From the NCBI GenBank assembly GCA_965178125.1, contig OZ237753.1, forward strand, positions 434,001 through 498,000: 64,000 bases of DNA, written 5' to 3'. The notes beneath the pieces are model-generated. The model was not told the origin of the DNA. It worked only from the letters and a program-made list of their open reading frames with translations, and ran no database searches. Made by a program: the position numbers and the translations under genes. This document shows positions 12,601 to 55,847 of the stretch, in pieces. Source of the DNA: Bilabrum cf. latius (Eukaryota). Position 1 is the stretch's first letter; each line of letters begins with the position of its first letter.

Positions 12601-15600
12601 AGGGAGCGGTCCGCCCGTTTGGCCACCGGCACCAGGTCCTCCTTCTACAAGGCTAATGCCGACATCACCAAGCTGGCCCGTGCGGCCTCCAAGCACGTGT
12701 CCTCCAAGCCGACCAGAGCATCAGCAGCTCGAGCGGCGGCGTTGATGCGTGAGAAGCAGCAGCAAACTGGGGCTCGGGACGAGTCCAAAGCCGCGGCTAT
12801 CATGGCAGCTGCAGCAGCATCAGCAGCCGGCGGATTCTCTGATGCTGAGGTTGACAAACCGAGGCCGCCACCGCCATCGAGAGAGGGCCAGCTGCCAGCC
12901 GGGACACAGCACCAAGGCAGAGGTGGCACTCCGGGCAGGTCACAACCCAGGGCGCCGCCTAGCAGGGAGGCTGGGTCAGGTGGACGAGACGGCTCATGGG
13001 ATGAGGCTAGCCCGGCAAGGGGTCGCAAGCGCGGTGGGGAGCAGCACGCGAGCCATCCGTCTGCGGTTGGTGGAAGCAGCCGCTCTTTCCGACGCATTGC
13101 ATCTGGTGTGAGCGTTGGATACCTGGGTAATCTGATCGACGAGCAAGTTGCGGATGAGGCTGACCTGGACGGGGAATGGGAAGGGGGGCGAAGCGGACAT
13201 GACGAGACGGGCAGGAGTGCAACAGGGCTCACCCAGGGTGCGGCCGGATCCAGGGAGCACGAGATGCCCGGCGGAGGTCCCAGGGAGCAAATGTTTACAG
13301 GAAACGGCACAGGGGGCCGGAACAGGGGCGGGCCCAACCGGGTATCGTCCTTTGGTGCGGTGAGCCTGGGTTCAAGCCACAGCGAGAGCTCTTAGCAACT
13401 CGTGGAGGGCCAGTCAGGGTCGGGGCACGACCTCAGGAGAGAGTTGCTCGACTCGTAGAGCGCACGTCGTCACCAACACGACGAATAGATGCACGTGACG
13501 AGTGCGACTGGCACCAGCCCTTAGCAGCGGAGGCTGTCGCGAAAGCACCCGCACAGTCAGACAATGGCGGGAGGTGCCATGCAGGGTGCGTCTGGGGGCG
13601 CTAAGGGCACGCACGCCGGGCAAAGGCCAATGCGCGCCGCCAGCTCCGCTGCAGATCTCCACAACGTTGCAAATGCTCACACCGTTGCTCGCCGGGCGGC
13701 GAGGGATTTCCGGCAGAAAAAAGAGCAGCTGCGCATGAGTCGCACGGACTTGACCGCTGGGACTGAGTATCAGGACGCAGTGGGCCTCGGTAGCGGGGAG
13801 GGTGGCGATGGTGACCCGTCGGACGGTCATGACAGCAGCGGCCATCCCCAGCAGGCTCACCTGGATGAGGACGAGCGAAGCGTTGTGCTAGCCAGGGTTG
13901 CCTCCCGGGCGCGAGTTGTGCCCATCAAACAGAGGGTACGAACCGACGCGGCAGCGGCGGCAGAGGCCCGAAACTTGCTGGCAGAGGCAAAGGCAGCGGG
14001 GGCCAAGGTTGGTCGGGTTCGGCCGTGGATGTCGGGAGCTCATGCTGGTGGCGCTGCTCGCAGCGTAGACTAGGAACAGCACAGGCCACGACATGGTTCC
14101 GATCATGTGGATGGGCACAGTCAGGCGTCAGTAGGCGGAATGCGCGGGCTTGGGGCCCTGTCATCTTCAGCAAGCCGGAGGCATGAATCCAGCCGGCGCC
14201 TCAGGCTAGCAATGCAGGCTGCATCCACTGGTAGTGGTGCTAGAAGTCGTGTGATGAGTGAAGACGAGGAGCAAGCGGCGGCCCTCCGTGATCGGGGAAT
14301 TGTATTGCTTGCCAAACCCAAGGTATACAGCCCGATCGCCGCGGGATTAGATTCAGCTGGGGCTGGGTTTGGGAGGCCAGTCGAACCGGCAACCACGTCT
14401 GGACAAGGCATGCACCGGGCAGGCACGATGGGACCGGGGACCCAGGGAACACGAGGGCATGTGCCGTCTCGAATGATTAGTCGCCGCCACAGCATGGAGG
14501 ACATCATGCACGGGTCGAGCCTAGCGGTTGGCCAAGCCATGGCGCGCAGGCAGCACGACAGCGATGCTCGCTTCTTGACGGATAGCGTGAGCGGTGGACT
14601 GTTTCACCTTGATGCCAGCATGGCTTCTTCGCCTTCGAGCAGCAAAACGGGCGCTGGTACTGGTGGGCGACCAAGGAAGGTTGGACCAGGACCAGGAGCG
14701 GGAGCGGGAGCGGGAGGTGTAGGCGGAGAAAGGGGCAGTGGATCGATTCGGGCACCGCGCGCACAGCGACGTTCTGGGGGTGCTGGCGATGCACGATATG
14801 GGCGGCGCTCTTCGTTGCCTGACCGTTTGAGCGAGCAAAGTGGTCAAGCAAGTGCTCGTGCTGCTCTGCCGCGCGGATCTCCTAGGAACAGCGACCCACG
14901 GCGGGTGCGGGCTGAGTCCAATTCGTCGTCGCAAGGCGTGAGCTGGGATCCTGAATCACTTTCTGATGCCACTGGAGAGGGCAGGGCGGTCCAATTTGAG
15001 GGTAGAGCGGCGAGCAGGGGAAGAGGCGTGGCTGTCCCCTCGTCTGGCCTGTTGCTGCATCCGCACTCGGGCCGATCGGTTCCGTCCCTAGATTTGCGCG
15101 GCGCCCGTCCCAGCGCGACCGACCTGCAAGGCGACACCTCTGGTATGATTCTATCGGCTCGAACGTTCGCCGATGCCGGTCGTGCGCGCGACCATGCGGT
15201 GCACCCGCGGCGAGGACGAGGCGGCGGCGGCTCACTCAGGGGACCGGGTTCGTCTCATGTTTCCGTTCAGCTGCCGCTGTCCATTCAGTCTGCGCGACTG
15301 GGTGCATCGCATGGCAGTGCATCAAGGCACGGCTACTACCGCGATCACCGGGCAGCCAGGGGAGTACTTTCGGGTAGCCGCGGCACTGCTGGCAGGACCG
15401 TGCCGATGCCGATGGGTGCTTCTGGGCAGGATGGGCACGGGCAGGCGCTGGGCCTTGATCACCTACTGGTGGCGTCTGGCTCGATCGGTGGCCGGAGTGA
15501 TGGTGCATCGGGGGTGCGTGCCTAGTATGCATTGCACGGTGGTGTGCGCAGGACTCGAGCAAGGTCCCACTCTCCAAATTCGATGCGGGTGGGGGCGGGC

Positions 15601-15798
15601 GGGGCAGCGGTTGGCGGTGGCAGACCTGGACCTGGACTCGATCGAGATTCCACCTGGGGTAGTGCAGGCGCAGATAACAGCAGGAACCCTTCGGCATCCA
15701 TGCACAACAGTTCAAGAGGCCAGCTGCCGTCCGGAACCGTTGCAATGCCGATGGATGGCCTGGCCTTGGCGGGCCAGTCGGCGATTGTCCGGCGATAA
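9652..15798 (+). CDS. Hypothetical ~2048-aa protein with a central coiled-coil and Gly/Ser/Ala-rich low-complexity regions
   Basis: Seven track ORFs (9787 to 15798) are in the same frame, joined by about 10 TAGs with no TAA/TGA. ATG 9652 follows an upstream TGA and the gene ends in TAA. No family recognised. Confidence 0.7.
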
Positions 15799-17379: not shown

Positions 17380-20352
17380 GAGAACCCCCAGATTTGTCCG
17401 GGGGGTTCCAATCGTAAAATCAACAGGTGCCGTCGATTTTACGACCAAAATCGACAAAGTTGGACAAATCTGGGGATGTTGGCCCACTAAAACCGACATT
17501 ACTCGGAATCAATTGAGGAGACGAGCACGCCTCCACACTCCTTCCGTGTTTCGTCCAGCACGGCTGTTGGATCGCCGGATTTTTCAACCTTCTCACAATA
17601 ACCAATGGCAGGTGCATCTGATGGCTCTGGGTTAGACCCCACTGGTAAAGCCGTGCTATCAGACCAGCTCGGCGAGGAGTCTGCGGCCGCCACTGGTGGC
17701 GTCGGCGCCCCCAGAACCATTAAGTTTAGCTCTTCCTCTCGTAGACATATTATATTCTCTATTCCTCTCGTAGTGACCGATTGAGATATTGAACAGTGCT
17801 GATGAGGGCAACGAATAGTGCCTTCGATGCTTGTGGCTGTTGAGAAGCGGGATTGCTTTCCTCTATACAAACACTATCGCAGAGCCCGCGGTCGACCATG
17901 TTGAGCTTGCTAGCCTTCGCGAAGTGCTGATGGGTCTAAGATACCTGAAGGCACCCCCTCACATCGCTGCTCATGCCTCGGCCACCCCCACTGCCTCTCC
18001 CCTGGCTGCCCCGTCTCCTGGTCCTCCGCCCCCCTGCCCCTGCCCCAGCTGTTACGCCCGCAGTCCCACCGGGTGCCTGCCCCGGCAGCCCACCCGTCGC
18101 ACCACTGCTGGGGCCCCCCAGCATGTCATGCCCCCCCCGCCCCACCCCTGTCCCCTTCCCCCCGGGCCCAGTCCCCTCCAGCCCCATGACCTCCCTGCCC
18201 GACCACGATATCGCCGACGCAGTCGCAGTCGCAGTCGCTTTCGAGCTCACTCGCATCGCTGCTCATGCCTCGGCCACCCCCACTGCCTCTCCCCTGGCTG
18301 CCCCGTCTCCTGGTCCTCCTCGCCTCCCGCCGCCCCCCTGCCCCTGCCCCTGCCCCTGCTGTTACGCCCGCAGTCCCACCGGGTGCCTGCCCCGGCAGCC
18401 CACCCGTCGCACCACTGCTGGGGCCCCCCAGCATGTCATGCCCCCCCCGCCCCACCCCTGTCCCCTTCCCCCCGGGCCCAGTCCCCTCCAGCCCCATGAC
18501 CTCCCTGCCCGACCACGATATCGCCAACGCAGTCGCAGTCGCAGTCGCTTTCGAGCTCACTCGCATCGCTGCTCATGCCTCGGCCACCCCCACTGCCTCT
18601 CCCCTGGCTGCCCCGTCTCCTGGTCCTCCTCGCCTCCCGCCGCCCCCCTGCCCCTGCCCCTGCCCCTGCTGTTACGCCCGCAGTCCCACCGGGTGCCTGC
18701 CCCGGCAGCCCACCCGTCGCACCACTGCTGGGGCCCCCCAGCATGTCATGCCCCCCCCGCCCCACCCCTGTCCCCTTCCCCCCGGGCCCAGTCCCCTCCA
18801 GCCCCATGACCTCCCTGCCCGACCACGATATCGCCGACGCAGTCGCAGTCGCAGTCGCTTTCGAGCTCACTCGCATCGCTGCTCATGCCTCGGCCACCCC
18901 CACTGCCTCTCCCCTGGCTGCCCCGTCTCCTGGTCCTCCTCGCCTCCCGCCGCCCCCCTGCCCCTGCCCCTGCCCCAGCTGTTACGCCCGCAGTCCCACC
19001 GGGTGCCTGCCCCGGCAGCCCACCCGTCGCACCACTGCTGGGGCCCCCCAGCATGTCATGCCCCCCCCGCCCCACCCCTGTCCCCTTCCCCCCGGGCCCA
19101 GTCCCCTCCAGCCCCATGACCTCCCTGCCCGACCACGAAATCGCCGACGCAGTCGCAGTCGCAGTCGCTTTCGAGCTCAGCTCTGTCGCTGGTGTCGCCG
19201 GAAGCCGGCCGGCACTTGCCGCTTTGTCTTGCCGAAATGCCCGGCCGCGTCGGCAGAGTATCCTGCGTGTGCAAACCAAGAGGAGACGGGAACCGCGGGG
19301 CGAGATGCGGAGGCAAACACACTTTGTAGTACAAGCCTATAACCTGAAAGTGATTGCTCACCTCATCTCAGGTACACGAGAACCGAAAGCAGGCGAGCCC
19401 ATCTAGGCAGGATTGCCATGCTGCCTCTACCTTGGTTGTTCGCCAGCTTCCAAGAAGAACGACAAGCCTAGCTAGTCAAATAGTACTCCAGTAGGACGAG
19501 CTAGTATGGGCTCAACCCTACCTTCTTTTCAAAGGCTTTCTCTGCTTGCAGAACTGTGCGTTCACCGCGAACGCGACGGCGGGCGCGCAGGTGCTGCCAC
19601 GTCCTGGGCTTAAGCGCCTGCCTCAAAAGCTAAGTAACTGTCACACAAGAGGTAACGCAAGAGCGTGCCACCTGTCCCGGCCGGACGGAGTATCCTCGTG
19701 GCTAGTTGCAGACGAACTGGAATCGCTCAAAGCATCGTCCCCTACTGCCTGATGCGAGTCGCGCCGGAGCTCGTCTTAAGCCACGCAGCGTAAAAAATCT
19801 TCAATCACCGTTTTTGCGGCTCGATCCCTCTGTCCCTTTGGTAGGGTTCGTGGGACTCGGACAAACATCTGTTCGATCCTACGCTTGAAATGAATCGGCA
19901 GCCTTCGACTCAACGCACGAACTACGGCCGGAACGGATGCCGAAAAGCCACTTCTGCGATGATGTTATGAACATGTAGGCGATAGGAATCGATAAAAAAT
20001 GTGGCATGAAGCAGCCTAGTTGGGAGCAAATTGCGCTGGCCAAAGGTCGCCCCTGTAGTTCACCAAGTAGTTAATTAGACACTCAAGAACCTCTTACTGA
20101 TTCATCTGTAGTATAATATTGCAATGAATGGTCGGAACAGTCTCTCAAAGCTTGTCACCAGGCACGATGTGGACGGCTGTCGGATTCTGGCCGATTCGCT
20201 CATCCAGCCGTTTGTTTTCTGTAAATCCGACCGGGCGGCCTGTCGAATTCGTCGATAAACTTGTGATCGGATCGGATCGGATCACCGAATCCGACAGTCC
20301 GTCGATTTTGGCACGTCGATTTTGGCAACCCCGGACAAATCTGGGGGTTCTC
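17380..20352. mobile_element. Non-autonomous TIR DNA transposon (~3 kb), possibly PIF/Harbinger-like
   Basis: A 24-bp perfect inverted repeat GAGAACCCCCAGATTTGTCCGGGG lies at 17380-17403 and 20329-20352. It is flanked by direct TCA (17377-79, 20353-55; alternatively CTCAG with 1-bp shorter TIRs). GTCGATTTT subterminal motifs occur at both ends. No transposase recognised. Confidence 0.8.
17962..19179. repeat. Tandem array of ~4 near-identical C-rich units (292, 310, 310, ~306 bp)
   Basis: Units start at 17962, 18254, 18564 and 18874 and contain internal (GCAGTC)3 and (CCCCTG)2-4 sub-repeats. Confidence 0.95.
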
Positions 20353-26452: not shown

Positions 26453-28315
26453 ATGAGAAGATTAATGCGGCGGCTTGCCGCTTCGACAACACGCCGTTGC
26501 CGACCCGTATCGATTGCCTGTTGCAGGTGCATTGCATCGTCCGCGGTACCCAGAAAGTTCGGTTCATCAACTTCAGCTTTATCGGAAGATTCCTTCGAGG
26601 CGCTGATGGGCGACAAGAAAGCGCCTGGTATCAGGACAAGTCGCGCATTCATCACTCCGCAGCGAACGAAGCGACGGGGGCTTGGCATCGTGCACGACCC
26701 GATTGTCAACAAAGGTACAGGATTCTCTGTTGCAGAGCGAGACTACTTGCGGATTCGGGGGCTGGTACCGCCTCGATAGCTAGACCTCGAGACGCAGACG
26801 AAGAAGATATACAATGCGGTGCAGGAGCAGGAATCCGACCTCCGCAAGGCCCTGTACATCAACGACTTGCAGGACAGGAACGAGACAGCCTTTTTCAGGC
26901 TGCTCATTGACCACATTGAGGAGCTCGCACCCATCATTTACACCCCCACGGTCGGCAGGCTCTGCCAGCGCTTCGGCACGCAGTTCCGTCGATCTCGAGG
27001 CATGTATTTTTCGGCCGAGGACAAGGGCATGATGGGAACCATGGTGCACAACTGGCCTCATGAGGACGTCGAAGTCATCGTGGTCACGGACGGCTCCCGG
27101 ATCCTGGGCCTGGGCGACTTGGGCACCAATGGGATGGGCATCCCCATCGGCAAGCTCGCGCTCTACTGCGCCGCCGGGGGCTTGCACCCGCGCAAGGTCC
27201 TCCCGGTCATGTTCGACTGCGGGACGGACAACCCGGAGCTGCTGAACGACCCGTTTTACCTTGGCCTGCAGCAGCCCAGGCTCAAGGGTCAGGAGTATTA
27301 CGAGCTGTTCGACGAGTTCATGAACGCCATCCAGTACCGATGGCCCCACGCCCTCGTCCAGTTCGAAGACTTCAAGACGGACCACGCGCAGGCACTCCTG
27401 GACAAGTACCGCCACCGCGCGCTGTGCTTCAACGACGACATCCAGGGAACAGGGGTCACCACCCTGGCCGGTCTCCTGAGCGCGCTGCGGTCCACGAGCA
27501 CCCCCAAGCTGCAGGACCAGAGGATCGTGGTGGTGGGCGCGGGGAGCGCGGGCATCGGCGTGGCGAACCAGATCCTGGACGCGATGAAGAGGGAGGGACT
27601 CAGCGAGCAGGACGCGCTGGAGCGCTTCTGGGTGCTCGACCAGTACGGCCTCATCCATCGCAACAGGGACCCGAGGAGCCTCATGCGGCAGCAGAGGGCA
27701 TACGTGCGGTGGGACGAGGAGGAGTCCATCACGCTCGAGCAGACCGTAGAGAAGGTCAAGCCCACAGTTCTGCTCGGCCTGACGGGACAGGGGGGCATCT
27801 TCACGGAGGAAGCCATCAGGGGCATGGCGAGCCACGTGGACAAGCCCATTGTGTTCCCTCTGTCGAACCCCACGTCGAGCGCCGAATGCACGGCGGAGCA
27901 GGCATACGAGTGGACCGACGGCCGGTGCGTGTTTGCGAGCGGGTCTCCCTTCGAGCCCGTCGAGCACAAGGGCAAGACCTTGCGGCCATCCCAGTGCAAC
28001 AACATGTTCGTGTTCCCCGGAGTCGGACTCGGAGCCAGCTTGGTGCGCGCGCGAGGCGTCACTGACGACATGCTGCATCAGGCGGCGGTGACCCTGGCGC
28101 ACTCCGTCTCGGAGGAAGAGATCTCCAAGGGGATGGTGTTCCCCAGCGTCAGCAACATCCGGGACGTGTCCAGGAAGGTGGGCGCGGCCGTGGCTCGGAC
28201 CGCGCTGGCGGACGGGATTGCGAGGTACACCCCCCCAGCGGGCAAGCTGGAGGACTGGGTGGGCCGCATGATGTACGAGCCGGAGTACGCGCCCGTCATC
28301 AACGACGTGTACTGA
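26453..28315 (+). CDS. NAD(P)-dependent malic enzyme with an Arg-rich presequence (probably mitochondrial)
   Basis: Motifs NKGTGF, RGLVPPR*LDLETQ, PIIYTPTVG, VTDGSRILGLGDLG, QFEDF, FNDDIQGT, GAGSAG and LSNPT are present. There is a single in-frame TAG at 26777 and the gene ends in TGA. Confidence 0.95.
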
Positions 28316-28650
28316 GAGAACTTTATACGACAAAGGCGCGGTCGATGGGGTTGCGCGCAGCTTGACCCGCGCTTATGTGACTCTGCTGCATCGGCTTTGC
28401 ACTTTGTGCGTCGTGGGGGTGGAGCTGCCTGCCATCCCTGCCGGACGGACACTTGAGACGTTCGTTTGCGTGGGGCAACTGGATTAAAACGGTCGTTTGG
28501 TTGCTTGTACAACCATAATTAGATACAGTTCTACAGATCGCACTTCATTTCTGCTTCTGTTTGCCGGGGAGTGGTCCTTGACAACCTCCCGCCGTGCGAT
28601 CCGTGGAATCACCATCAATCAGATGGAGCATTTTCCACTTGATACACTGC

Positions 28651-30355
28651 TCAGATGAAATCGTAGTCCTCCCCCTCCTCCTCCTGCTCGCCGTCCTCAG
28701 CCTCATCCTTCGAGCTACCTCTTTCCGGACCCACGGGGCCTTGTGGCTCGGTGGCCTTGCCGGCACCTGCTGCACCAGCACCAGCGCCAGCACCACCCGA
28801 AGTGTCAAAGAGGTCGCCTTCATCATCATCTTCATCTTCTTCATCGTCCTCGAATGCGAGCGGGTACCGCAGCAGAGCCCCGATCCCGCCGAAGCCCATC
28901 CGGAGCATGCAGGCCTCCTGGGACTCTCCCAATAGATCCGTTGAGTCGCCAGCACCAGGGCCAGGACAGCCGACCCAGACCACCCTTGCGCCCTCCACCG
29001 ACTCAACGGATTTCTTGCCGCTGTCGGTCCCGGGCCCAGCCGCGGCACCAGCGTGCGACGCACCCTGCAGTGCGACGTCCTCAAGAATACGAAGGCACCT
29101 CGATAGCTCCAGGTCTCCAGCGGAACCGTCGCCGCGCGCCAGCCGCCGGGCACGCTCCTCACGGCCTTCGAGCTTCCATCGCATTTCGGCCATGCCGCCG
29201 ATCCCAGGCGGCGAGGTGTGAGACGGCTCCTTGTCCCCTGCGGAACCTCCACCCTTGCCGGAGGCGCCCCGCATTTGGGTCCATCGCGAACCCTCCGACA
29301 CGAGCACGCATTTGACGGCCCCTGCTGCCCACGCCTGCAGCACGTGAGCGGCACCGTAGCACGCACGGACGCCGCCCGCAGCACCGGCACCGGCTGAACC
29401 CACGTCGATCGGCGCCTCGGTCAGCCTGCGGAACATCTCCCGCAGGAGGTCCTCCTCGTCTGCGCGGCGCCGGTTCCGCAGAGCGCCAGCGGCAGCCTCC
29501 ATGGCCACCCGCAGGCCCAGCCGGCCCCCGTACTCGGACGCGACTTGCAGTACGGGGGCACGGTGCTTGCCACCGCTGCCCGCTGGCGAAGAGGAGGACA
29601 AGGGGGACGGCCCGCCGCCGGGCATCCCTGCGACCATCTTCGCAAGCTTGGCAGCCACTTGGTCGCAAACAGACCCACCAGAGGTTCCCGCGACCACTGA
29701 GGCCTCAGTGACGAGCCTCCCCGCCCCGTCGCGGAAGGCGAGCATGGCGGCGTCGCAGACCCGAGCACTTGCTTCATCGACCTGGCCCTCTCTCAGCCTC
29801 TGGAACCGAGGAGCGCTCTGGCCTCCCTTTCTGTGCTTTGGGGCGATGGAAAAGGACACGGTGCGGTGGGACCATGCCCGCTCTCCGTCGGTCAAGCAGA
29901 TGCTCGCTTCACCAGGACCGAGCACGATCACGCCGGCTGTTCTTGCGCCGGCTCCGCTCGCCGCTTCGACGGACTGTCGCAGCTAATCCAGGTCAAAGAC
30001 ACGGCATGCACCTGTAAGTGTGGTGTTGTACCGGAATTGGGGGAGCGAGCAGGCATACGTCAGACGAGGACGCGAACACAGCTAGCCCAGACTTTGGAAC
30101 CGAGTTCTTCAGGGAAGCTTGGACCATCCCAAGCTGCGACCGCACTTTACCGATGCAGGCTATCACACTACTACGGTTACTCTTGCTTCGAATCTTGCTG
30201 GCGGACGCCGCCTGCTCTCCAAGCGCAGACATCGCCGCGGCAATCGTCGAGTTTGGTTTCAGGTACAGCGACACCATAGATTCGTCGGCCTCCTTCGGGC
30301 ATCTCCATTCGGACAGTACATCGACATCAAGTCGACTTGCTACTCGCACCTGCAT
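28651..30355 (-). CDS. Divergent eRF1/aRF1-like class I release factor, split by a +1 frameshift at CTT-TGA-C (29998-29992)
   Basis: The N domain (SMVSLYL, SASKIRSKSNRSSV, VPKSGLAVF, PPIPV..YRC) is in one frame. The M domain (APKHRKGGQSAPRFQRLR) and C domain (CYGAAHV..GAVKCVLV, GFGGIGALLRY, acidic tail) are in the +1 frame. About 567 aa if joined. Confidence 0.85.
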
Positions 30356-31126
30356 ATCTCTATCCTATGTGGTGGCTGTTAGAAGTGATTCTATCGCTGC
30401 GTTCTGGGTCTACAAAAAAAAACCGGAACCGTCCTCGGCAGACTCCTCTCGGCAGGAACAGACCTTTCCGCGCTTTGGGGCGATGGAAACGGACACCGAA
30501 TTGCGGTTTCTGGTCCGACGCCCGGTGAAATGTTCGCTTTGACGCGCCAAAATAGTTTGCACGGGATTCGTGTGTGTGCTGGGCATACTCTTTCTTGCCG
30601 TTCGTCATCTACCAGCAAAGTCGCGTGCCACGGACATGCTGCTGGCCCAGCAACCAAGTGTAATAGTTTGCTGGGAGATCACTGCTCTAGCCATTTCATA
30701 CTCTGAGTTGAATTGATCAACTTGCTCGCCCCACCTGGAGTTCATCTCTCATTTCAGCATCGCCAGTTTGCGACTGTTTGTGTGCTCGCAATGGCGTGCG
30801 ACCACAGGTGTACCGGCCAACTTGAACACCCAAAACGGTGCATATTTGCTGCTGGCCAGCGGACCAAAAAACTAACAATGAGTAATTTAGTGACGCGGGA
30901 GACGCCCCAACAGCGATGATGTCGTAGCCAGTCCTTGATTTGTTCCCTGCCTCGCATGCACGAGATGACGAGCGAGGCAGGGCACTGGACACCAGCGCCA
31001 ATCAACTGCAAGTCACAAAAAGCCCACGTCACACCTGGCTGCCCAGCAGGCACACATTGCAGCATCAAGCACGCTGGGTTCGAATAAGTTCAATTAGATT
31101 TCCTTGCTGTTATTTGCTTCGATCAG

Positions 31127-33968
31127 ATGGGCTGCGGAACCTCTACTTTGGCAGCAGTGCACGTAAGATGCGATACACGCGCGAGCTACCGCTTGCAAAT
31201 TAGCCGTCTGGAGAGACAATGATTTTGCGTTTTTAGCAGCACCAATGGGACCACTGCCGGTCGTATTCCCCACGTGATGTGCCTTGATCGATGATTTGCT
31301 GGACACGCACCTCGATTCTGTTAGATTTGGTGTGTCGCTCGCAACAAACGCGCACCTCTGCCAGTCAAGCTTGCTGCCAGTGACCAACGATGGGTGGATC
31401 TCGCAGGCCAACCAGCAAGACTCTTTTGAGGTGACGCGCAGCAGCCACGAGGAACTTTAGAGCGATCGGCCACATGCGATTGAACATGGCACTGGAACCA
31501 ATAGAACCCCGATGGTAGCGCCTATGCGGAAAGATCTGAGGGGCGCTGCCGCAGCTGGAAAAAAGCTGCTGCTCCCTGTCGGGCAGATAATCAAATCTGG
31601 TCGTCCGCGGCACCGGCACGTGCAATTATGGGTTCTTTCGGCGCATCGTAACAAGCACGCCAGGATATACTTCGCCTCAGGCCCGCTCGAGGCCATCGCG
31701 GTCCAGCGGTGGTTCACTAAGCTGCACGCAGAGATGATCTCGGCATGCAAGGGCAGCCATCAATATCATAAATGTCACTCGCAGTGCTATCGGGAATTGC
31801 AGCGAGGAGCTCCCATGGTGCAGCCTTTTACCATGGGCTCCACGGTACTGGCGTCGCCAAGGTATCTTGGGGTGAGGACCAGGCGAGTTCTCGCGCAAGA
31901 TGCCTGCGATTCTGAAGTATTGCCATGCGTGCTCGAAGCTACGGCAACATTCGATATAGATGTCGGAGAAACCGAAATTAGGTACGAAGTCTTCGGGCAG
32001 CTGCCGATCGAGGATATGGCGGTAATGATGCCTGACCCGCTCGGGGACTAGCTCTGTAGCTAGCCATCTGCGACTTTCATCTCGTCAGAGTCTTCACCGA
32101 AGTAGCTTCCGCGCCACAAAGAGCTGCCAAAGTCGCGCCTGAGGCCGAATATGCCGTCCGGCGTTTTGCGGAGTACAAGCGCTCCAGCTTCCATGCGGCG
32201 TCGTAGCCCCGCTGGCGCTGCTACCAAATCACAAGAAAGTAGGCAGGGCTGTTGTCATAGGGCGCAATTGAACTTAAGCGTAGACTAGTACACACGACGA
32301 TGTGACAGTCACCTGTCCGTAGTTCGCGAGGTCACCGTCGAGGATGCCAGCCTTCCATCGATGGATTCGGACAGTAATTCTACGAAGAGCTCTTCGAGAA
32401 CATGCAAATGCAGCCAGAAACTTATAGCAGGAATCGCTGATGCGCACGTGCAATCGCCGGCCTGCCAGAGCGAAAAGGATGTGGATCAACCACTGTCAGC
32501 GCCGGCGGTTGCAACCTGTTTCCAACAGGATGGTGTCGACAGCGTTGCACTGGAGTCTCCTCCTGTGCAACTGCACGCCCAGGCATCTCTTGGGGCTATT
32601 GGCGGCTGTGCTGTTGGAAGGGGGCAGCATTTCACGGAAGCGAGCACGCCGACCGAGCAGCCCCGTGCTTGTATTGCCACCAATGCGGGCTCCAACGCCC
32701 ACCGGCAGGAGGAAATGCTCGGAATATATGTGGCCAGAAGCTTTACGTGCACGAGTACTCGTAGAGGCAGCCGGGGAAAAGCCGGTGAGCACTTGCGCGA
32801 CTCGAACAGAACATCGCCGAGCTGTGCAGGGGGCAGCTCCCAATCTGGTCGCACCGAGTCTGGGAGCGTATCGTTTCCGGGAAAAAGCTCGTTGGTCGAG
32901 TCCTACTTGCCTGGCGTTGGGAGGGGAGACCGAATACACGATCTTTCCACTGGTACGCCTGGCACCTTGGAGCTCCCGCCGAGCATATTTTACAGCACAC
33001 ACGCCGGCAACAGCTTCCGGCCGGGTGGTGATCCGAAGCGGGGAAACCACAAGCTGCCACGAGAGCGCATCCCGTACGGTGACAATGCGCGACGATCGCA
33101 CATGAATGCTGCGACAACTGGCACTGCGCTGCCGAGGCATAGAGGCCGGGAGGCTTCAGCTGCTCGACGGCTCTCCCGCGGCGCCAAGCCCTCAAACGAG
33201 CAACGTTTCAAGCTTGGGGGCGAGAAGGCGCGCGGATCTCATCGAATCTATGGAAGTCCAACCCGTGGTACCGCGGGTAGACGTAGGGGCAGATCAAGAA
33301 GCTTGGGCACCGGCGCTCCACAAGCTGCTCGCTCGCTCCTGCCAGCGTCGACCTCTTCCATCAGTGGCACCATTGGCACCAGTGGCAGTGGAGTGCAATC
33401 AGATCTCGGGTTTCAAGACCGGCAGTTGCCCAGTTAGCCCCGGGGAGGCCATGAGGCAGACACCAGCAGCACCTCAAATTCGAGCAGCATCTATTTCGGC
33501 GCGACGAGCTTGCTGGCATCTGCCTCAAGTTGGTCAGTCTCCGGTGGTGGTGGCCAGTTCGACCGCTTCGTCCCCGTGGAGCTGATTTTGCCTCCAGGTG
33601 GAATGGAGAAGAAGCAGGCCAAGAGAAATGGCGAGCACGACGCGGCCTGGGGCGAAACCGATTCAGATGACGACTCGGAGGAAGAGTATGAAGAAGGGGG
33701 TCCTGCCCACCGAGTCGATCAGTCGCGGTACGCAGCGGCGCACGAGCGACCATCGCGTTCGTCCGGGGATATCGGTTCAGGGAGTGACGAGAGAGAGGGC
33801 GAAGATTCTACAGACGAATTCAGTGCGGTGCTGAACCCGCTGTTCCTGATTAGGACGGAGGGTCCCGTGTGGGGGGCTCTCATGAGGCGAGCAGGATTCG
33901 TGCACGGGCTGAGGAAGCTGCTCGGGCTGCGGCAGCTGGCTGTTGTAAGGCTAGGGGTTGTCCAATGA
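31127..33968 (+). CDS. Unrecognised family paralogue 1 (MGCGTS start; intron 31163-31364)
   Basis: A phase-0 GT-AG intron joins the MGC exon to a TAG-containing frame. Shared motifs are QLWVLSAHR..FASGPLEA, FVPVELILP and LNPLFLIRTEG..LRKLLGLRQLAVVRL. Ends in TGA. Confidence 0.7.
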
Positions 33969-34551: not shown

Positions 34552-37424
34552 ATGGGCTGCGGGGCATCAACCCTGCCCCAGCACGGCGTGAGAGCCGTGA
34601 CATTCCGCGGGTGCTACACACTCGCTAGATATCCCTTTGACATTTGAATAATGTGGTTGTCTACCATAATGCCCATTCTTTTGCACGCGCGAGAGGACTG
34701 CGCGTGCATTCGCAAACCACGGGCTGCGCGTGCCACAGCTCAAGCGGGGTCCATTACACTGCTCAGTTCCACCCATCGCAGGGAGATACCACGGGACCCT
34801 CATTCAGTGACATCGATGAAGATGGGATGAGCAGATCGTTTGAGGAGTACGTTGCCGAAATCAACAGAAAGAACCCAGGACCTCAGGCTGCAGGCCGCGA
34901 GATCGAAGCAGGCCAGATCCAAACGGACTAGCTGGCCAACCTGATGGGCCGGCCAATTCGAGCTCTGCGACAAAAGCACGTGCAGCTCTGGATAGTGTGC
35001 GCACGTAGAAGTCGGAATGCCAGGATTTTCTTTGCTAGCGGTCCTATGGAGGCCGTGGCAATCGAGCAGTGGCTGAGCAAGCTAAACGAGGACATGCTAT
35101 CTGCAAACGCAAACGACAAGCTTTGCCGGGAGCGCGCCGATTCGGAAGACGCACTTGGGAGTATTAGGGTGGAACCTTTCTTATCGGGATCCACATTCCT
35201 GTCGTCGCCACGATTCCTGCAAGTTTGTGTCGGAGCTAGGCCGCTGCAGCCACCGACGCCTCAGTAGCCCGATCAAATTCCTGCCAGTGTGGTCAAATGC
35301 TTAACAAAGCACAAGATCTGTGTCGGGTAGGATGAGCATAGATTCGCTGTAGCGCCGGTGGTGCCAGCGAAGTACGCGGCTGCTGCCATGGTGGAATGCA
35401 CCGGCAACAACGCAGTCGATCAGCCCTCGGTAACGATAGCATCAGAGCTACCATCAGCAAAATGCGAGCCGAGACACAGGGAGCTACCTGAATCTCCATT
35501 AAGATCGAACTTGAGACGGCAAGAGGACGACATACGCCGCACAACGAGCGCGCCCCCGCAGCTCGCGACAAAGCCCCGCAGCATTCAAGAAACCGATGCC
35601 AACGGGGTCGGTCCCGGTGAAGCATTCCTGCCAAATAACACTACACCGTCACCCAGCGGAAACCCAGGATCAGATGCACGATCGCACGATGGTATCGCAC
35701 AGCCAATCCGCAGCAAGCGCCTGGGCACGGAAGGCTCCAAGCTGTCGGTGGTCCAAGAAGCTACCATGGAAGACGGAAGCTTGATATCCACTGACAATGA
35801 CAACTGTTCTGAGGATGATTCAAGAGGCGCTCAACTTGGCAATACGGATGAGGCTTGGTCGAACAACAATTTTAAGGATCGACGAGGTCGCAACCCGGAG
35901 CCACACTGTCAGCGCATCGATGGTCGCATCGTCGACTCGGCTGCCAGCAGCTTGGCCCCAACGATCGGTACAATCGGCCGAGACGGCAAATTTGTGGTCG
36001 CATCGGGACCCCCGTTGATAAAACCTGCTCCCAGTCGCTGTGATCGTGGCAATGCAGCGCGATCGTCCGGCCAACGAGTGTCGGAGTGGATGCCAGAGCA
36101 CCTGTCTGCTCAAGAGTTTGACCCAAGCAGACAGGATGGGCTCCCTGTTGTGGCCATCGCAAGGCGCTTCACGTGTGCGAGCAACATATTGAGCCCTATT
36201 GGTCAGGGCTTCCAGCAGGAAGGCACAAGCAGCGGCGTGCCCGCTGGTCACACCAGCGCGGTGTTCAGATCCGAGACATAGACTGAGTTCGGGAGTTCAG
36301 CAAACGCCTATGGAAGCAGTCTGACCAGTTGCAAGGCCTTTGAGCATGTGAAAAGCCAGACTACTACCAGGAGGTTCTTCGAGACCGCATCTCAATCAGC
36401 GGGCGCCGTCAGGGCTCGCTCCCGAGCAACTGCTCGCCGAGCACGATCAGCGAGCCTCGATTTTTCGCCCAGTTCCCTGGCGCACCGAAGGCCGGGCAAG
36501 TCCAGGAGCGCAACGAGGAAAGTGCGGGTCGGAAGGCACCTCGAACGTAGACATGATTTTGCGACCAGGGAAGCAGCGGCGGCACTCGAACGAGATTCTA
36601 GGAGTGGTGCTGGTGGCGCATCTGCCTTGGCCGAGCACACAGGAGGCAGCAGGACAACCAGCCACAGCCGGCATGGAGAAGGCACATCCGGTGCATCTCA
36701 CTACCGACAGGACCACTCGGTATCGGCACCGCGTGCCTTTGGAACCGAAGGGACCGAAACCGAAAGGACGTCGTCGGGCGCGGCGAGCAGTGCGGGACAG
36801 CTTCAAATCGAGTTGTCTGGCAGGCGGAGGATGCACAGGCCAGTACGATTGAAACCACACCGGCACCGGCACCGGCACCGGCACCACAGTCCGCCCCGCC
36901 GAAGGGAACGTTCGGTGCACGAAGTTGGGTTCGCCAGTCCCAAGCATGGAAGCAGCTCCTCCGATGCAGGCAGCACCGCGACTTCCTCCTCGTCCACAAC
37001 GAGCGGGTTCCATTTCGGTGCGACCAATTTTGAGGCATCTGCCATGTCTGGCAGGGGAGAGCAGTTCGACCGATTTGTCCCAGTGGAGCTGATCTTGCCC
37101 GCGGATGGATTGGAGCAACACAAGGGTGCCGAGCAGGCGAGCGACCGAGCAAGTTCTTCTTCAGCTGGGACGCCAAGCAGGAGCGGTGGTTCATCGCCCA
37201 GCAGGAGAGCCGCCTGGCCCGAAGATGGGCACCAGGAATAGGAGGTGGAGGCGGAGAGTCCTCAAGATGATGGGTTTGATTTGTTGCTGAACCCGCTGTT
37301 CCTGATTAGGACGGAGGGCCCCGTGTGGGGGGCTCTCATGAGGCGAGCAGGATTCGTGCACGGGCTGAGGAAGCTGCTCGGGCTGCGGCAGCTGGCTGTT
37401 GTGAGGCTGGGTATGGTTAACTGA
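34552..37424 (+). CDS. Unrecognised family paralogue 2 (MGCGAS start; intron ~34588-34781)
   Basis: Same architecture and motifs as paralogue 1. The frame is continuous through TAGs and ends in TGA at 37422-24. Confidence 0.7.
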
Positions 37425-37738: not shown

Positions 37739-40700
37739 ATGGGCTGCTGTCATTCCGCTGCCGTCCATGCTGTCCTCGTGAGCTCATCGGTTTTATGTTC
37801 CTGTCATATACCCTCTTCATGCTATTGTATTCTCCGTCGAGCGAGCGTCCCGTTGCTATCGCTCCAGTGTTGCATTTCTAAGTTGCTCCATCACACTCGC
37901 GTTGTCGTTTTCGCTGGTCGCAGCCGCGACACATGCTAGAGCAAAGGCGGTAGCAGCACTTGCCTTCATCAGATACATATGCATCTGGCTTTGCTAGGGG
38001 GAAAGCAACCGACCATGGCCAGCAGGCACTGCAAACCAGGCGGGTATCTGCGCAGGACAGGCAAGGCCAGCGTCGCTCTAATTCAAGCCAACTTTGGGTG
38101 TTGGCGGCTCACAGAACGAAGGGAGCCGGTATATTCTTTGCTTGTGGGGCTCTGGAAGCGCTGGCGGCGCAGCATTGGTTCCGGGGACTGCACGAGCGAC
38201 TAGCCGGCCAGTCGATGGCAGGCATTCACGCCACGCCAAGGGTCATTTCGTTCCAGCACTCGGCTGTTCAAGGCGCGTTTTAGCAGCACGTATGTGTGTC
38301 TACGTAGCAAGTTCCATTGATTGATGAGAGTGCCGCGGATAGCTCTTTCGCGCACGGTCGCACCGTGACGCTTGCTCGGTTACCGCCGAGCATAGTCGAC
38401 ATCCTCCGAGACAGGGGCATCAGCAGCAAGAGATCACGCACCGTGCTGCAGGTCACCGCTGGCGCAGCCGGACAGAACGCGTCGCAATCGCACGCTGATT
38501 CCGTGCAGGGCCTCGCCAACCGCGCCTTCCCCCGCCGCCTCCCCCGCACTCACAGCGAGACGCTACCAGGCGGCGGACTCGCCCGCACAATGGGGCTCCT
38601 CCTCCCGCACAACTTGGTCCGGGAGAATTCCGGCTCCGAATCTGTGTCGTCGGCGGGCAGCGTCGGCAGCGCTCGGAGCCTGCCCAGGCATCGGCAGGTG
38701 GACAACTACCAGCTCAAGTCGAGCTTCAGGGGGGCAGGCAGGGGGCCCCAGGGAACAACGAGGCAGAGGAGCGCGAGCGTCCCCTCGCGACGTGCCATGG
38801 GCATGCAGCCAGTAGGACAGGCCCCTGCTCACGGAAGCAGAGGGGAGCACGGGGCGGGCACGGGCGCCGGCATCCTCTTGCCTGCTGCTGCTGCGGACCA
38901 CGGGGCGGGCACGGAGGGTGCATCGCACGGCAGCGTGCCGGCCCCCCGGGTCTTCGGCAATCTGCATGGCCACGCCATCCGCAGCTACCGCCTGAAGGGC
39001 CGTCGGCTGAAGCAGGGCATCCCCAGGGGTATCCCCTAGCTGTCCATGGTACGGGAGGCCACGGTGGAGGACGCGAGTGCCAGGTCATCCGAGATGTCCT
39101 CCTCCAGGAGTTCCAGGAGACACGCGCTGATGGGGAGCGTGCTGGCTGGAGACAGGCGCAGCCACAGCGGTGGCATGGCTCCCATGCAGCTGGCAGGAGG
39201 AGGGGGGACTGCAGCTGCAGTTGCTAGCACCAGCCCCATCGTTGGTGGCGTTGGTAAGCAAGCCGGCATGTTGCCCGGGCGGCCGTCCAATGGCGAAGGG
39301 GCTAGTGGGAGCGCGGGCGGCAGCAACGATGACATCATGTTTAACACGCTGGCGACGCACGCTGCCAACCTGGCTGCCAATGAGGTGGCTGAGTCACCAG
39401 CCAGTGATGGGACCGAACTGCCACAGGACCAGAAGCACGGGTCGACCACGATCGCAGCAGGAGACACAGCATCAGAAATCGTGCCGTCGGGCGTGCCTTT
39501 AGCCCCTGCTCCAGGCATTCGATCCGCGCTGCCTCCGTTGCAGCCTGGCGGTACACGAGGCAGCTCTGGAAGGAGCCGCCTGCTGCAGGCACTTGCTGAC
39601 GGAGATCGGGGCGGTGGTGCGCCTGCGCATGGAATGGGGAAATACCATGCGACAGATCAGCCAGCAGCGGGTGAATTGCACGGTGGCAGGGGAACGTCTC
39701 GTCTGCAGCTTGGGCCAGGCGCATCGACCGGTCAGCTATACGGCGCTGGTGCTGCTGCGGGAGGGGGCGCCAGCGCCGGTGGTGACAGTGCTGCGAGCAG
39801 CACAGGGAAGGAGAGAGAGGGGGCGGGTCGCGCGCCTAGCGGCAGCAATCCCGCGACTAGGAGCCAAGGCAGCAAGGGGACCGTGTCCACCGGTGGATCC
39901 AAGGGAACTGGATCGTTTAGTAGGACCAGTGACTAGATCTAGTCCACTGACGGCGGCGTGCTGCCACACGGAAGAAGGAACGGCAATAAGGCCTAGGGCC
40001 CGAGTCGGGATACGGGCCAGCTCAGCAGGCAGCAGTTGTACTCTCTACCGGTGATTAGCGTGGGCAAAGACGTGGTGGAAGGAACTGCGTCGCAGCTCGG
40101 AGCGGCGAGGATTGCCCTGCACGCCGCCTCTTCTCATCTGACGCAGTCGCTGTCTGCGGGCAAGATCGGCGGCTCGGGTGAGTCTCCCGTGACCCGTAGC
40201 GCGGGCAGTAGCAAGGGTGCTCCTGGTTCTGGACCCCTCCGGTCTGTCGAAAGCTCCAACAGAGTTACGTCGATCAGCCGGTCCGAGGGTCCGTCGGCGC
40301 TGCAATCCATCGGTGGACTCGGCGACGACCGCTCAGGCGTGGCGATCACCGGCTAGGGCACCCATGGCCTGACCTCGTTCAGCACAACTGCCACTGGGAT
40401 TATGCTTCGCGCGCACGCTCCCACAATGCCCGCCCCGCGTGCTCATGGCCCGGACCCCGGCACATCCTAGACACAAGCGCAGGTTCCATCATCCAGGGCA
40501 CAAGTGGCTGGTGCAGCGGACACACCACCGGTCGGCATGCCGCAGGCTGCCAGTGGTGATGAGAGGGTCCAGCATGCTCGGTAGAAGGACAAGTCCGGCT
40601 GGAAACAGGCTCGCGAAGGTAGCGGCGGCAGCGATAGCAAGGCGAATCGACTCAGCAGCAATTCCATTCGAGACCGAAGTGGTAGTTGGAGCGGCAATGC

Positions 40701-41343
40701 TCGGCTGTCCGCGAGGGTCACGCTGCGGGAGCACGCGAGCAACCGGGGAGGAAAGAAACAAGGGCGCGAGAACTTGCTGTCCAGCGGGTCCTCTGCAACA
40801 AAGCAAACTTTAAGGATACAGGGATCATCGCTGTCCAAGTTCGGAGGCGAAGGGGAGGAGCATGAGCGCATCGGCGCAACAGGTCTTCCCGGTGGCCTGC
40901 AAGCTGGACGGGGACTTGATCGCGTAAATGCCGGGCAGCTGGCAGCGCTGGGAGGGCCCAATGTAGAGGTGGCTGGCTCGAACCGGATGCCAGGTATTGC
41001 TACCGCGGAATTGCTTCGGGGAATGGCGCATTTCGTGCCGACCGAGCTTTGCTTGCCGCCTGGCGGCGCACGGCGGGTGATGGCTGAGCGGGGTGCTTCC
41101 CAGCAACCCGGTGGTAGAAAAGCATCGCAATCCAATCAATCCAACAGAGGTTCTGATGAAGAGGCAACACTGGATATGATGCTAAATCCCTTGTTTCTCG
41201 TGAGAACGGAGGGCCGGATTTGGGCTGGTCTGCTCCGCCGCTCTGGGTTCACAGAGACGCTAAGCAAGGTACTCGGGCTAAAGCAGCTGGTTGTGGTAAG
41301 GCTGGAGCCGAGAAGTATGTTGGAACACGACTTGATTGACTGA
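37739..41343 (+). CDS. Unrecognised family paralogue 3 (MGCCHS start; intron 37778-37923)
   Basis: Motifs QLWVLAAHR..FFACGALEA, FVPTELCLP and LNPLFLVRTEG..LSKVLGLKQLVVVRL are present. The frame is continuous through TAGs and ends in TGA. Confidence 0.7.
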
Positions 41344-41630: not shown

Positions 41631-43536
41631 ATGGGCTGCGGAAGCTCCTCTCGCGTCCATTCAGCGAACTCAGGGGGGATTCTTTCGTCAAATTAGCTTA
41701 GAGTGAGTCAAAACTACATCTAGGGAGCGCGTCGGCCTCTGCTGCTGCGCTCCTAGAGGAGTCCCTTGGGAAAAGAGGCAGCGTCAGCGGTCGCACCACA
41801 TGACCACGTACTCACTATCGTGGACCAATTCGCCAAGCTGTCCGCAGGGTTGTATCACTTAGCACTTACAAAGGTTCGGTGCAGCACAAAAACCCATTGC
41901 CGACCTGAAGCGCGCCAGGGAAGCAGCCGGTTGCCAAGATCGGGTGGGCCGGGTGCTTTGCGAAGCTGCGCTCGGCCTAACATCACAGGCAAGACATCAG
42001 GAGACGAACTGGCTCATTGTATCCCATCGGTGTGCTCAATAGCGCCCATTTTTTGCGCCTAGTCGAGAAGAGGCTAAGCTGGTCGAGTCGTGGGCTGTCG
42101 ACGAGCACAGCAACATTTCATCATATAAGGCTGACGCAGGAGCACCGTCAGGGAGGAGTGCGGCCCAAAGTGGTGACCATCTTGGCCCTGCACAGAAGTA
42201 GAAGCAGCCTTCAGTCATGTTGGTCGTGCGCGGGAACGGGAACGGGATATAGTCAAAAGGCCAGAAGCCAGCCAAGGGCTCCTGCGATCGGACCAAATAC
42301 GACAACCTTCACCGAGCAGCTATGGCTCCGCATCAAGTTGGCTGTACTGCTAGTAGTGCCCGGTCTATACAAGGCCTTGGCACAGTCTCGTCTGCCGGTG
42401 ATCAGCGAGATCGAGACTATGCAAATACCGGGCCAGATCCTCGCAGCACTCGTTCATCCACTTCGAAGAGGTAGAAGGCTAAAGCAGCCGAATCGATTCA
42501 TGTCAAGGCATGCTCGAGAAAATAGGGTCCTGCATTATCAGCTTGGGTACGAACCCCAAGCAAACCAGCAGGTCCGACGAGTCAATTGTAGGGGTTTTCT
42601 AGTGAAAAATGCGTCTAGTCTGCAACTGCGCAGGAACGAAGTGATACTACACTTTGCAGCATGACTGGGGGCTCGGCAATCTTTAACAGATCAGCGGCCA
42701 GTGCTAATGGGCGAAGTTCCGTCAGCAGCTCCAGCAGACCGGAAGAACCGCCGGCAGCGGGTCCCGCCGGTATGGACGAAGACGTTGATTACGGCCAGGC
42801 AATTGCAAGTTCTAGTCCCGGAAACTGCGCATGCTCAGCCTACTGCTTCTCAATAGTCGATATGGGGCGCAGATGCGTCGTGTTGAGGCCGTGCTCTGCA
42901 TCTTCTGGGTGTCGCGCGGGCTCAACTGAAGGCTATGATTCCGGTTAGGATCTTAACTAGAACCAGCCGTGTTAGGTCCCACGAGTGTGTTCACCGTGCG
43001 GCGGCATCATATCGATGGGAAGCTCGGGTTGCAAGGAAGCAGCAGATGCTCCAGCTGGCGACCCAGATCAAACCACCGAAGTGAAGGTCTCGGCAGCCGA
43101 GACGAGCGAAGATCCGGATACACCGGTGCCGGTGCCGGGAAAAGGCATCGGAGGCATCCACAAGCACATTCGCGCGTCATGCGGCGGCTAGCGTGGGTCT
43201 ACACCGAAAGGCAGCACGGACCGCGCATGTCGCCAACGCGAAGGCAGTCAGCCTGAGGACCGAGCTTCGGCCGAGCACTTGCTCGCAGAAGTGCTCGTTC
43301 CGACCAGCGAACATTTGCCAAGCGCCAGCAGCGACAACGATCATTCCACCTTTATCATGACCCCATTGTTCCTTCTGAGGACGCACGGGCCTGAGTGGCT
43401 TGCTCACGTTAGGAGCGACAGCTTCTTGCAGGACCTGAGGAAGTTGCTCGGCCTTCGGCAGCTGGCCGTAGTGCGACTGGAGCCAAAGCAGTCGGAGCCC
43501 GGTAGTGTGCAGCGCCCATCTAGCGTCGCAATGTGA
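41631..43536 (+). CDS. Unrecognised family paralogue 4 (MGCGSS start; intron 41703-41847)
   Basis: Motifs NWLIVSHR..FFAPSREEA, LVPTSEHLP and MTPLFLLRTHG..LRKLLGLRQLAVVRL are present, with many in-frame TAGs. Ends in TGA. Confidence 0.65.
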
Positions 43537-52704: not shown

Positions 52705-52852
52705 TGCGGGTCGGATCGCAGCTTCTATTTGATAGAGTGTTGCGCGTTGTAGGGGCGGCGTTTGCCTGAAATGTTGAGATCAGCTCAAATAAGGAGATTC
52801 CTTGCTGTCACATGTGTCTACCAGCACATTGGAGCCCCCCCTTTCCACATGA

Positions 52853-55302: not shown

Positions 55303-55650
55303 TCACGTACCAGCGCCACCTCCGGCAGCCTCTGCAACGACCACACTGCCCTCTTTCTTATCCAGCGCCCCAACCTCACCTTCCTCTGGCACAGACCTTG
55401 CATACAGCTTGATCTCAACGCTGTCATGCGCTCCCTTCAGCAGCATTTTTCCCTTGAAGAAAACGATCTTGCGCTTCTTGGCTGCTAGCAGCGTGCCCAC
55501 AAGTGCCTCAAACACCTGCTAACACCTATCATCGTCGAACAAATCACCAAAGGTAACGATGTACTTCCCGTCATCCTGCTTCTTCCCCAATCGAACTATC
55601 TCGAATCTCAGCTGGTCAACCTCCTCCTCAATCTGGGAAGCATCAGCCAT
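55303..55650 (-). CDS. Costars-family protein (ABRACL-like)
   Basis: Translates as IEEEVDQLRFEIVRLG..VTFGDLFDDDRC*QVFEALVGTLLAAKKRKIV..MLLKGAHDSV, with one in-frame TAG (55519-21). Ends in TGA. Confidence 0.9.
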
Positions 55651-55847
55651 TATCCACTCAGATTAAACGCAGAAACGCCGTGTGTAATCCTTGCCAACCA
55701 ATAGAAGGTGTTGGTAATGCTGCCAAGCCGGTTCCAGCTCTGCCTTTACTAAACACACTGTGGCACAGCAAAGTTTCTGTTCCGTTCAGCTCAACTCGGA
55801 GCGGATCTTCGAGTTGCGATTGACAAGCTAGACCTACAAGAGGACCC

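Follow-up and report, generated by a model that had tools for sequence, protein, structure and literature searches.

The 64,000-nucleotide (nt) stretch of contig OZ237753.1 from Bilabrum cf. latius analysed here (hereafter the window) carries on its reverse strand a gene of the eukaryotic release factor eRF1 family, whose coding sequence is divided between two reading frames. The N domain is encoded in frame 0 and closed by an in-frame TGA, the middle (M) domain with the catalytic GGQ motif and the C-terminal (C) domain follow in the +1 frame, and the two parts meet at the heptamer CTT TGA C. On the sequence at hand we lean, with some caution, towards a working member of the eRF1 family that evolves fast and whose full-length form depends on programmed +1 frameshifting at CUU UGA C. 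A first-pass annotation of the window had reported an eRF1-like protein with altered stop codon recognition motifs, and was silent on the in-frame TGA, the change of frame, the in-frame TAG shortly behind it and the heptamer; these alter the subject of that finding. Coordinates are collected in Table 1.

Frame 0 is open over codons 1–120 and then contains 15 TGA or TAA codons. The +1 frame is interrupted by TGA or TAA at codons 32, 64 and 82, with no further one up to codon 567; an open downstream +1 frame of this kind arose by chance in 4 of 5000 shuffles. A codon-usage model trained on eight other long open reading frames (ORFs) of the window matches frame 0 down to about position 30085 and the +1 frame from about position 29995. 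The motif YRCMPCL runs directly into the in-frame TGA (29995-29993, reverse strand), and behind the junction the +1 frame reads GAC CTG GAT TAG CTG. With the shift set at CTT_T, the phmmer alignment to yeast and wheat eRF1 continues gap-free from one part into the other. Two features of prfB-type genes are present: a stop inside the coding sequence, beyond which the protein continues in the +1 frame, and a shifty heptamer of the form CUU-stop-C. The seven positions of the heptamer are covered by contigs of four runs from four studies, with no other letter, no gap and no contig joint. A stop with C as the next base closes none of the 14 window ORFs of at least 350 codons; the internal stop has this context (TGA C), which is taken to be a weak one for termination.

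Two further ORF ends were recorded. The gene for a 2414-residue WD40 protein ends with CTT TGA T (52699-52705, forward strand), that is, with the same Leu codon and stop, followed by T, not C. A 120-codon ORF (55303-55662, reverse strand), which has the top per-codon codon-usage score in the window, ends with TGA C; it lies upstream of the capping-enzyme gene and may represent either an exon or a small gene in its own right.

The N-terminal part is related to eRF1 far beyond chance, as in the phmmer comparison with Protein Data Bank (PDB) chains the best match is 4crn_X (E 2.7e-17) and chains containing the N domain only, e.g., 2mq9_A, match at E 1e-4. The motif changes proposed by the first-pass annotation are borne out by the alignment to yeast and wheat eRF1: DES, within EADESMVS(L), stands opposite GTS, SASKIRS opposite TASNIKS and YRCMPCL opposite YxCxxxF. 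Its statement that GGQ is kept is correct as well, but this motif lies beyond the N-domain ORF to which it was assigned, in the +1 frame. In a 26-row alignment (A1), I55, Y114 and C116 are retained at invariant or nearly invariant columns, residue 48 is Gln where at least 90% of the rows have Glu (the column we take to be human E55), and residue 56 is Arg where at least 90% have Lys. NIKS, characteristic of eRF1 and its archaeal counterpart aRF1, therefore reads KIRS, with Ile retained, Asn replaced by Lys and Lys by Arg; the GTS loop and the nearly invariant Glu, also characteristic of both families, are replaced by DES and Gln. YxCxxxF keeps its Tyr and Cys; its last position is Leu with a slip at CTT_T and would be Phe, supplied by the overlapping +1 frame, if the slip took place one or two codons before that.

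An AlphaFold2 model of the 120-residue N part, built with alignment A1, has a predicted local distance difference test score of 86.8, and N domains of eRF1 or aRF1 account for all 24 of its Foldseek matches in the PDB at E <= 1e-3. Since the alignments behind it and behind the model of the downstream part consist of eRF1 homologs, both models are biased towards the eRF1 fold. The Pfam family eRF1_1 found no match in the conceptual protein joined across the shift; phmmer nonetheless aligns its residues 24–223 to eRF1. Taken together, the changes (GTS to DES, Glu to Gln, NIKS to KIRS and, with the slip at CTT_T, Phe to Leu at the end of YxCxxxF) fit a UAG-blind factor, and they may mean either restricted or relaxed stop reading by the predicted protein.

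The part downstream of the shift contains the remaining domains of the family. Within the conceptual protein, eRF1_2 scores 40 bits (cutoff 27.1; 6e-10) and eRF1_3 scores 31.6 bits (cutoff 25.8; 2.4e-7), so that Pfam, phmmer and the fold matches of the models together give the three-domain N-M-C architecture of eRF1/aRF1. In alignment A2, the G, G, Q and S of the GGQ loop fall on nearly invariant columns. The C-terminal GFGGIG.LRY motif, followed by an acidic tail, is of the eRF3-binding type by sequence. AlphaFold2 modeled the cores of the M and C domains with confidence and three long stretches with low confidence; the top PDB matches of this model are ribosome-bound eRF1. Pelota-type rescue factors are not known to carry GGQ. 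The Pelota/Dom34 pattern, with neither GGQ nor stop codon motifs, does not describe the present protein, in which GGQ is present, and eRF1 chains rank above Pelota in the fold searches with both models.

The codon three positions behind the proposed shift is TAG, which the window uses as sense. Its long reading frames are interrupted by in-frame TAG only, and once TAG is counted as sense, ORFs of at least 300 codons add up to 21,452 residues instead of 9,140. ORFs of 1712, 2048 and 2414 residues carry 15, 10 and 14 TAG codons, and eight long ORFs together have 58 TAG among their 10,160 codons. Compared with solved structures, an ABCC-type transporter aligns through its TAG positions, with homology on both sides. 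The stops of 15 complete long ORFs are TGA in 14 cases and TAA in one. In this window of 59% G+C, GAA reaches about 0.4 times the frequency of GAG, and CAA about the same fraction of that of CAG, so sense TAA should be frequent; none was found in the homology-supported long ORFs of the window. We infer a nuclear code in which UAG is read as sense while UAA and UGA still stop translation, apparently a reassignment of UAG only, in a nuclear genome of 59% G+C. Because TAG is sense here, any working eRF1 of this organism must ignore UAG. The amino acid inserted is perhaps Gln or Glu, TAG standing opposite Q, K, E, D, A/E, A/D and V in alignments to PDB chains. Scans of the window for tRNA genes and with Rfam gave no match each, and no suppressor tRNA was seen there. 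The literature searched on UAG reassignment names no GC-rich lineage that matches the window.

The following course of events is proposed. Translation would start at the ATG at 30355 and produce the N domain in frame 0. At codons 120–121, peptidyl-tRNA-Leu would sit on CUU with UGA-C in the A site; release at UGA would yield a 120-residue N-domain fragment, and with slow release the tRNA could re-pair one base forward (from CUU to UUU), with GAC read next. The UAG three codons further on would be decoded as sense, and the M domain with GGQ and the C domain would be made. Since release and slip would compete for UGA, the yield of full-length protein should rise as UGA termination capacity falls; this inverse dependence is the logic of RF2 (prfB) and of the Mimivirus and Megavirus genes. 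As TGA is the stop of 14 of the 15 complete long ORFs, such a sensor would report the main termination load. The nearby decoded UAG would also penalize residual recognition of this codon.

A stronger version of this proposal, which we put forward with considerable doubt, is that the gene encodes a UGA-reading, UAG-blind eRF1 whose messenger RNA (mRNA) carries two adjacent sensors, an RF2-like solution in a cellular eukaryote. CUU UGA C would boost production of the factor whenever capacity for termination at UGA is short, and the UAG three codons further on would cut production off should any factor still recognize this codon.

For bacteria it is textbook knowledge that release-factor genes can monitor their own activity by way of a shifty stop; the prfB shift site lies near codon 26 and is aided by a Shine-Dalgarno-like element. 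The present locus shares with prfB the in-frame UGA, the remainder in the +1 frame and the identical CUU UGA C, as the heptamer is quoted in PMC3521657 (this and the other articles cited below were available in excerpts). RF2 belongs to an unrelated family, whereas the site considered here stands at codon 121, on the border of the N and M domains, in a eukaryote, and no stimulator was found. Shifty stops in eRF1-type genes have so far been reported only for Mimivirus and Megavirus; according to the same excerpts, the eRF1-like genes R726 and mg280 contain CUU UAG C and CUU UAA C together with a second internal stop, +1 frameshifting at the Mimivirus site was shown in E. coli, and such recoding is described as absent from eukaryotic and archaeal homologs. 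These viral genes resemble the present one in being divergent genes of the eRF1/aRF1 type with a +1 shift at CUU-stop-C in their 5′ part and a second internal standard stop. Compared by their description (PMC3521657), they differ in keeping both NIKS and YxCxxxF and in having UAG or UAA as the shifty stop, with UGA-C readthrough preceding the shift; the shifty stop here is UGA. In addition, the present locus sits among cellular genes, and its nearby UAG, unlike the viral second stop, is an ordinary sense codon. In the 19 giant-virus eRF1 loci obtained from IMG/VR with alignment A3 as the query, the N and M domains always share a single frame and the motifs are canonical; there is thus no frameshifted relative among them.

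Canonical eRF1 (Sup45/ETF1) has in common with the predicted protein the three domains, the fold of the N domain, GGQ, GFGGIG.LRY and the acidic tail; it differs in that the locus has GTS, the Glu, NIKS and, with the slip at CTT_T, the Phe of YxCxxxF changed, contains large low-confidence inserts and is divided over two frames. In organisms with UAG as sense, the eRF1 excerpts describe changes in the same N-domain motifs, namely T32G in Iotanema, Ala at position 69 in the rhizarian exLh and RIKS in Amoebophrya (PMC5304391, PMC12005148), and the Thr of GTS is stated to contact the G of UAG (PMC5304391). Those are single substitutions in otherwise conserved proteins, whereas at the present locus all motifs and the whole protein are divergent. 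In plants, eRF1-1 is autoregulated through readthrough and nonsense-mediated decay (PMC5397192, in excerpt), another case of a eukaryotic eRF1 whose expression is linked to termination efficiency; that circuit uses the gene's own final stop and mRNA decay, while the locus has an internal shifty stop. Amoebozoan eRF1 paralogs of Pelomyxa schiedti (KAH3764669.1, here P0006) and Acanthamoeba (excerpts of PMC3521657) share with it GGQ and a degenerate NIKS region; P0006 is a single ORF, matches the query weakly (E 3.3e-10) and stands apart from it in a quick tree. The literature searched contained no description of a nuclear eRF1 gene with a shifty stop, and the part of the review PMC5009743 that was accessible contained no eRF1 passage.

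The protein is by sequence the most divergent eRF1 of the compared set. Its identity to other eRF1s is approximately 23–34%, and its branch of 3.24 is the longest among the 52 rows of the quick tree (median 1.03; canonical eRF1 about 0.08–0.1). At the split from the aRF1-like group, which has a Shimodaira–Hasegawa-like approximate likelihood ratio support of 94, the tree places it with the eukaryotes, the placement of so long a branch being unsure. When the post-shift part was compared with 1.84 billion representative proteins, 72 matches at E <= 1e-3 were obtained, a single one of them below 1e-10. This match, P0005, is a 226-residue fragment from one 1645-nt contig, and 200 of its 226 residues (88%) are identical to the post-shift part; the differences cluster in the low-complexity inserts, and residues 143–236 are almost unchanged. 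As the differences avoid the folded core, purifying selection downstream of the shift is suggested. P0005 ends where the window has CAG for Gln (29068-29070, reverse strand); a TAG at this place in the relative would be a hint that TAG encodes Gln.

Other searches added little. A word-index search gave one weak match with the conceptual protein and none with the N part. A scan of metagenome loci with the post-shift part yielded 599 pattern matches, none of which was confirmed. A viral scan with protein P0007 found nothing, and an exact look-up of two window ORFs found no entry in the protein collection.

Contig ends hint weakly at a transcript whose leader would be 175 nt long: contigs start at 28577 (run X6) and 28565 (run X7) and end at 30530 and 30412, respectively, while those of two other runs (X1 and X5) continue further. 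The first ATG opens the N domain. A 34-nt direct repeat occurs once in the leader and once in the codons leading into GGQ (Table 1); two matches were found in the window and none in 100 shuffles, and there is no further copy in the window.

A rival to programmed frameshifting is that the locus is a recent pseudogene or a decaying paralog, broken by a one-base indel while a canonical eRF1 is encoded elsewhere, with CTT TGA C a coincidence. We regard it as unlikely, although several observations point in its direction and thereby weigh against a frameshift that is itself predicted from the letters. The four runs may represent one strain, the best of them perhaps the source of the window, in which case a recent frameshift mutation would look alike in all of them; the heptamer was compared among these four runs. 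CTTTGAC is not rare, occurring in the window 10 times against 7 expected, that is, at chance frequency, and 4 of the 28 scored ORFs end with TGA C, all of them unverified and of at most 149 codons. No clear stimulatory fold was seen in the 123 nt downstream (z −1.5), and this segment is not counted as a stimulator; the transcript-like contigs are a weak hint, no run being on record as RNA. The branch is the longest in the tree, and the loss of nearly invariant N-domain residues (Glu to Gln, Lys to Arg and Asn to Lys) also fits decay or relaxed constraint. A malic-enzyme fragment (P0078), perhaps from the same relative as P0005, is 98% identical to its counterpart in the window, against 88% for the release factor, which would accordingly evolve faster. 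A decayed copy is harder to reconcile with the 447 codons that stay open past the break with host-like codon usage, and with the position of the break, which falls within four codons of the first stop of the old frame and exactly at Leu-CUU-stop-C, a form known from two other release-factor gene families. The differences in the relative spare the folded core, and the leader has no upstream ATG, the first one opening the N domain. That splicing, editing or transcriptional slippage restores the frame ahead of translation, or that the contigs share an assembly error, is very improbable. Introns seem to exist in the otherwise intron-poor window, as a putative one of 98 nt in the capping-enzyme gene indicates, but reading of the letters by eye found no GT..AG pair of length 3n+1 around the junction, and with homology reaching it from both sides an intron as long as that one, or longer, cannot be accommodated; an intron at the junction was rejected for these reasons. 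The T run is only three bases long, and the contigs of four runs bridge the site without a gap, joint or other letter.

Given a working frameshifted gene, its product could be either the sole or main eRF1 or a specialized paralog. The first-pass annotation had named loss of UAG recognition and a specialized paralog as alternatives; both survive and are not separated by our results, each having gained partial support, the former from TAG as sense in the window and from the replacement of the GTS Thr by Glu, the latter from the branch length set against that of canonical eRF1, from an ordinary malic enzyme and from the amoebozoan precedents. A sole or main eRF1, with an N domain reshaped along with UAG reassignment, reading UGA and perhaps UAA and sensing itself through the frameshift, seems improbable to us. 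The genome does need a UAG-blind eRF1, TGA is the stop of nearly all complete long ORFs, GGQ, the eRF3-binding type motif and the acidic tail are kept, and the residue contacting the G of UAG is replaced (PMC5304391). On the other side, the variant-code eRF1s described in the excerpts show point changes instead of wholesale divergence, and other conserved proteins of the window are not hyper-divergent: malic enzyme is approximately 56–62% identical to stramenopile homologs (best named matches in oomycetes, diatoms and Triparma), an ordinary degree of conservation, unlike that of the release factor. A specialized paralog beside a canonical eRF1, acting as a codon-relaxed or UGA-restricted release factor or as a rescue factor and induced by slow UGA termination, is the better of the two, though still doubtful as a whole. 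All three codon-reading motifs are degenerate while GGQ is kept, and evolution is fast; the retained GGQ sets the protein apart from Pelota-type rescue factors, which argues against that particular role. A second eRF1 has not been seen for this organism, no search aimed at one having been made. Divergent eRF1s occur in P. schiedti (P0006, which is without NIKS in the alignment) and Acanthamoeba (excerpts of PMC3521657). Extreme divergence, ordinary neighbors and these amoebozoan paralogs make us lean modestly to a paralog over a sole eRF1.

If the two-sensor proposal were true, the locus would represent the first prfB-type autoregulatory frameshift in a nuclear eRF1 gene, having arisen by convergence with bacteria and Mimiviridae or by an old gene exchange with giant viruses, and release-factor regulation would be tied directly to the reassignment of UAG alone. 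A nuclear example would show the CUU-stop-C device working on eukaryotic ribosomes in nature and would supply a natural reporter of termination efficiency. UAG as sense with UAA and UGA apparently kept as stops is a rare kind of code, and a factor in which every codon-reading motif is altered offers a handle on how stop specificity is rebuilt during reassignment. Even a decaying copy would mark a variant-code lineage with a second eRF1 gene worth finding.

Table 1. Positions in the window of the release-factor gene, its parts and other features.
Feature	Position	Strand	Remarks
Probable 5′ leader, 175 nt, no ATG	30356..30530	-	X6 contig ends at 30530
eRF1 N-domain ORF, frame 0, codons 1–120	29996..30355	-	phmmer, 26-row alignment, AlphaFold2, Foldseek
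DES (opposite GTS)	30286-30278	-	
SASKIRS (opposite TASNIKS)	30205-30185	-	
YRCMPCL (opposite YxCxxxF)	30016-29996	-	
CTT TGA C heptamer	29992..29998	-	frame-0 stop and proposed +1 slip site (CTT to TTT, then GAC)
In-frame TAG	29983..29985	-	codon 124 of the conceptual protein, three codons past the proposed shift
M and C domains, acidic tail, three low-confidence inserts	28654..29994	-	447 codons, +1 frame
GGQ within KHRKGGQSAPRF	29826-29818	-	
GFGGIGALLRY, then Asp/Glu run (acidic tail)	28896-28864	-	
Final stop	28651..28653	-	TGA, then G
Probable 3′ untranslated end	28577..28650	-	contig starts; weak hint
34-nt direct repeat, coding copy	29826..29859		residues just before and into GGQ; 31/34 identical to 30463-30496
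34-nt direct repeat, leader copy	30463-30496		within 30356..30530
TAG-bearing long ORF (example)	3538-8676	-	
TAG-bearing long ORF (example)	9652-15798	+	
TAG-bearing long ORF (example)	45460-52704	+	
Malic enzyme, presequence-like N terminus	26453-28315	+	E 4e-156 to PDB malic enzyme
Putative 98-nt intron, GTGAGG...TTTTGCAG (GTGAGG..CAG)	54591-54688	-	mRNA capping-enzyme gene
Four tandem genes	31512-33968, 34827-37424, 37933-41343, 41800-43536	+	no Pfam match
Tandem repeat of 310 base pairs	18031-19179		3.7 copies, 99% identity

The neighborhood of the release-factor gene includes the malic-enzyme gene. The best named relatives of its product, in oomycetes, diatoms and Triparma, are 56–59% identical, so that the host may be a stramenopile, which we take as a lead and not as a taxonomic assignment. 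The fragment P0078 mentioned above comprises 323 residues and indicates a close relative in public reads; a query of the protein atlas with malic enzyme returned generic bacterial clusters only. The putative intron of the capping-enzyme gene joins an exon with KxDG to one with LLDGELV, which lie in different frames. The four tandem genes have a common conserved N-terminal module, a near-identical C-terminal end and long low-complexity middles. The tandem repeat lies where G+C content and skew peak in the window, and the overlapping ORFs found there are probably spurious.

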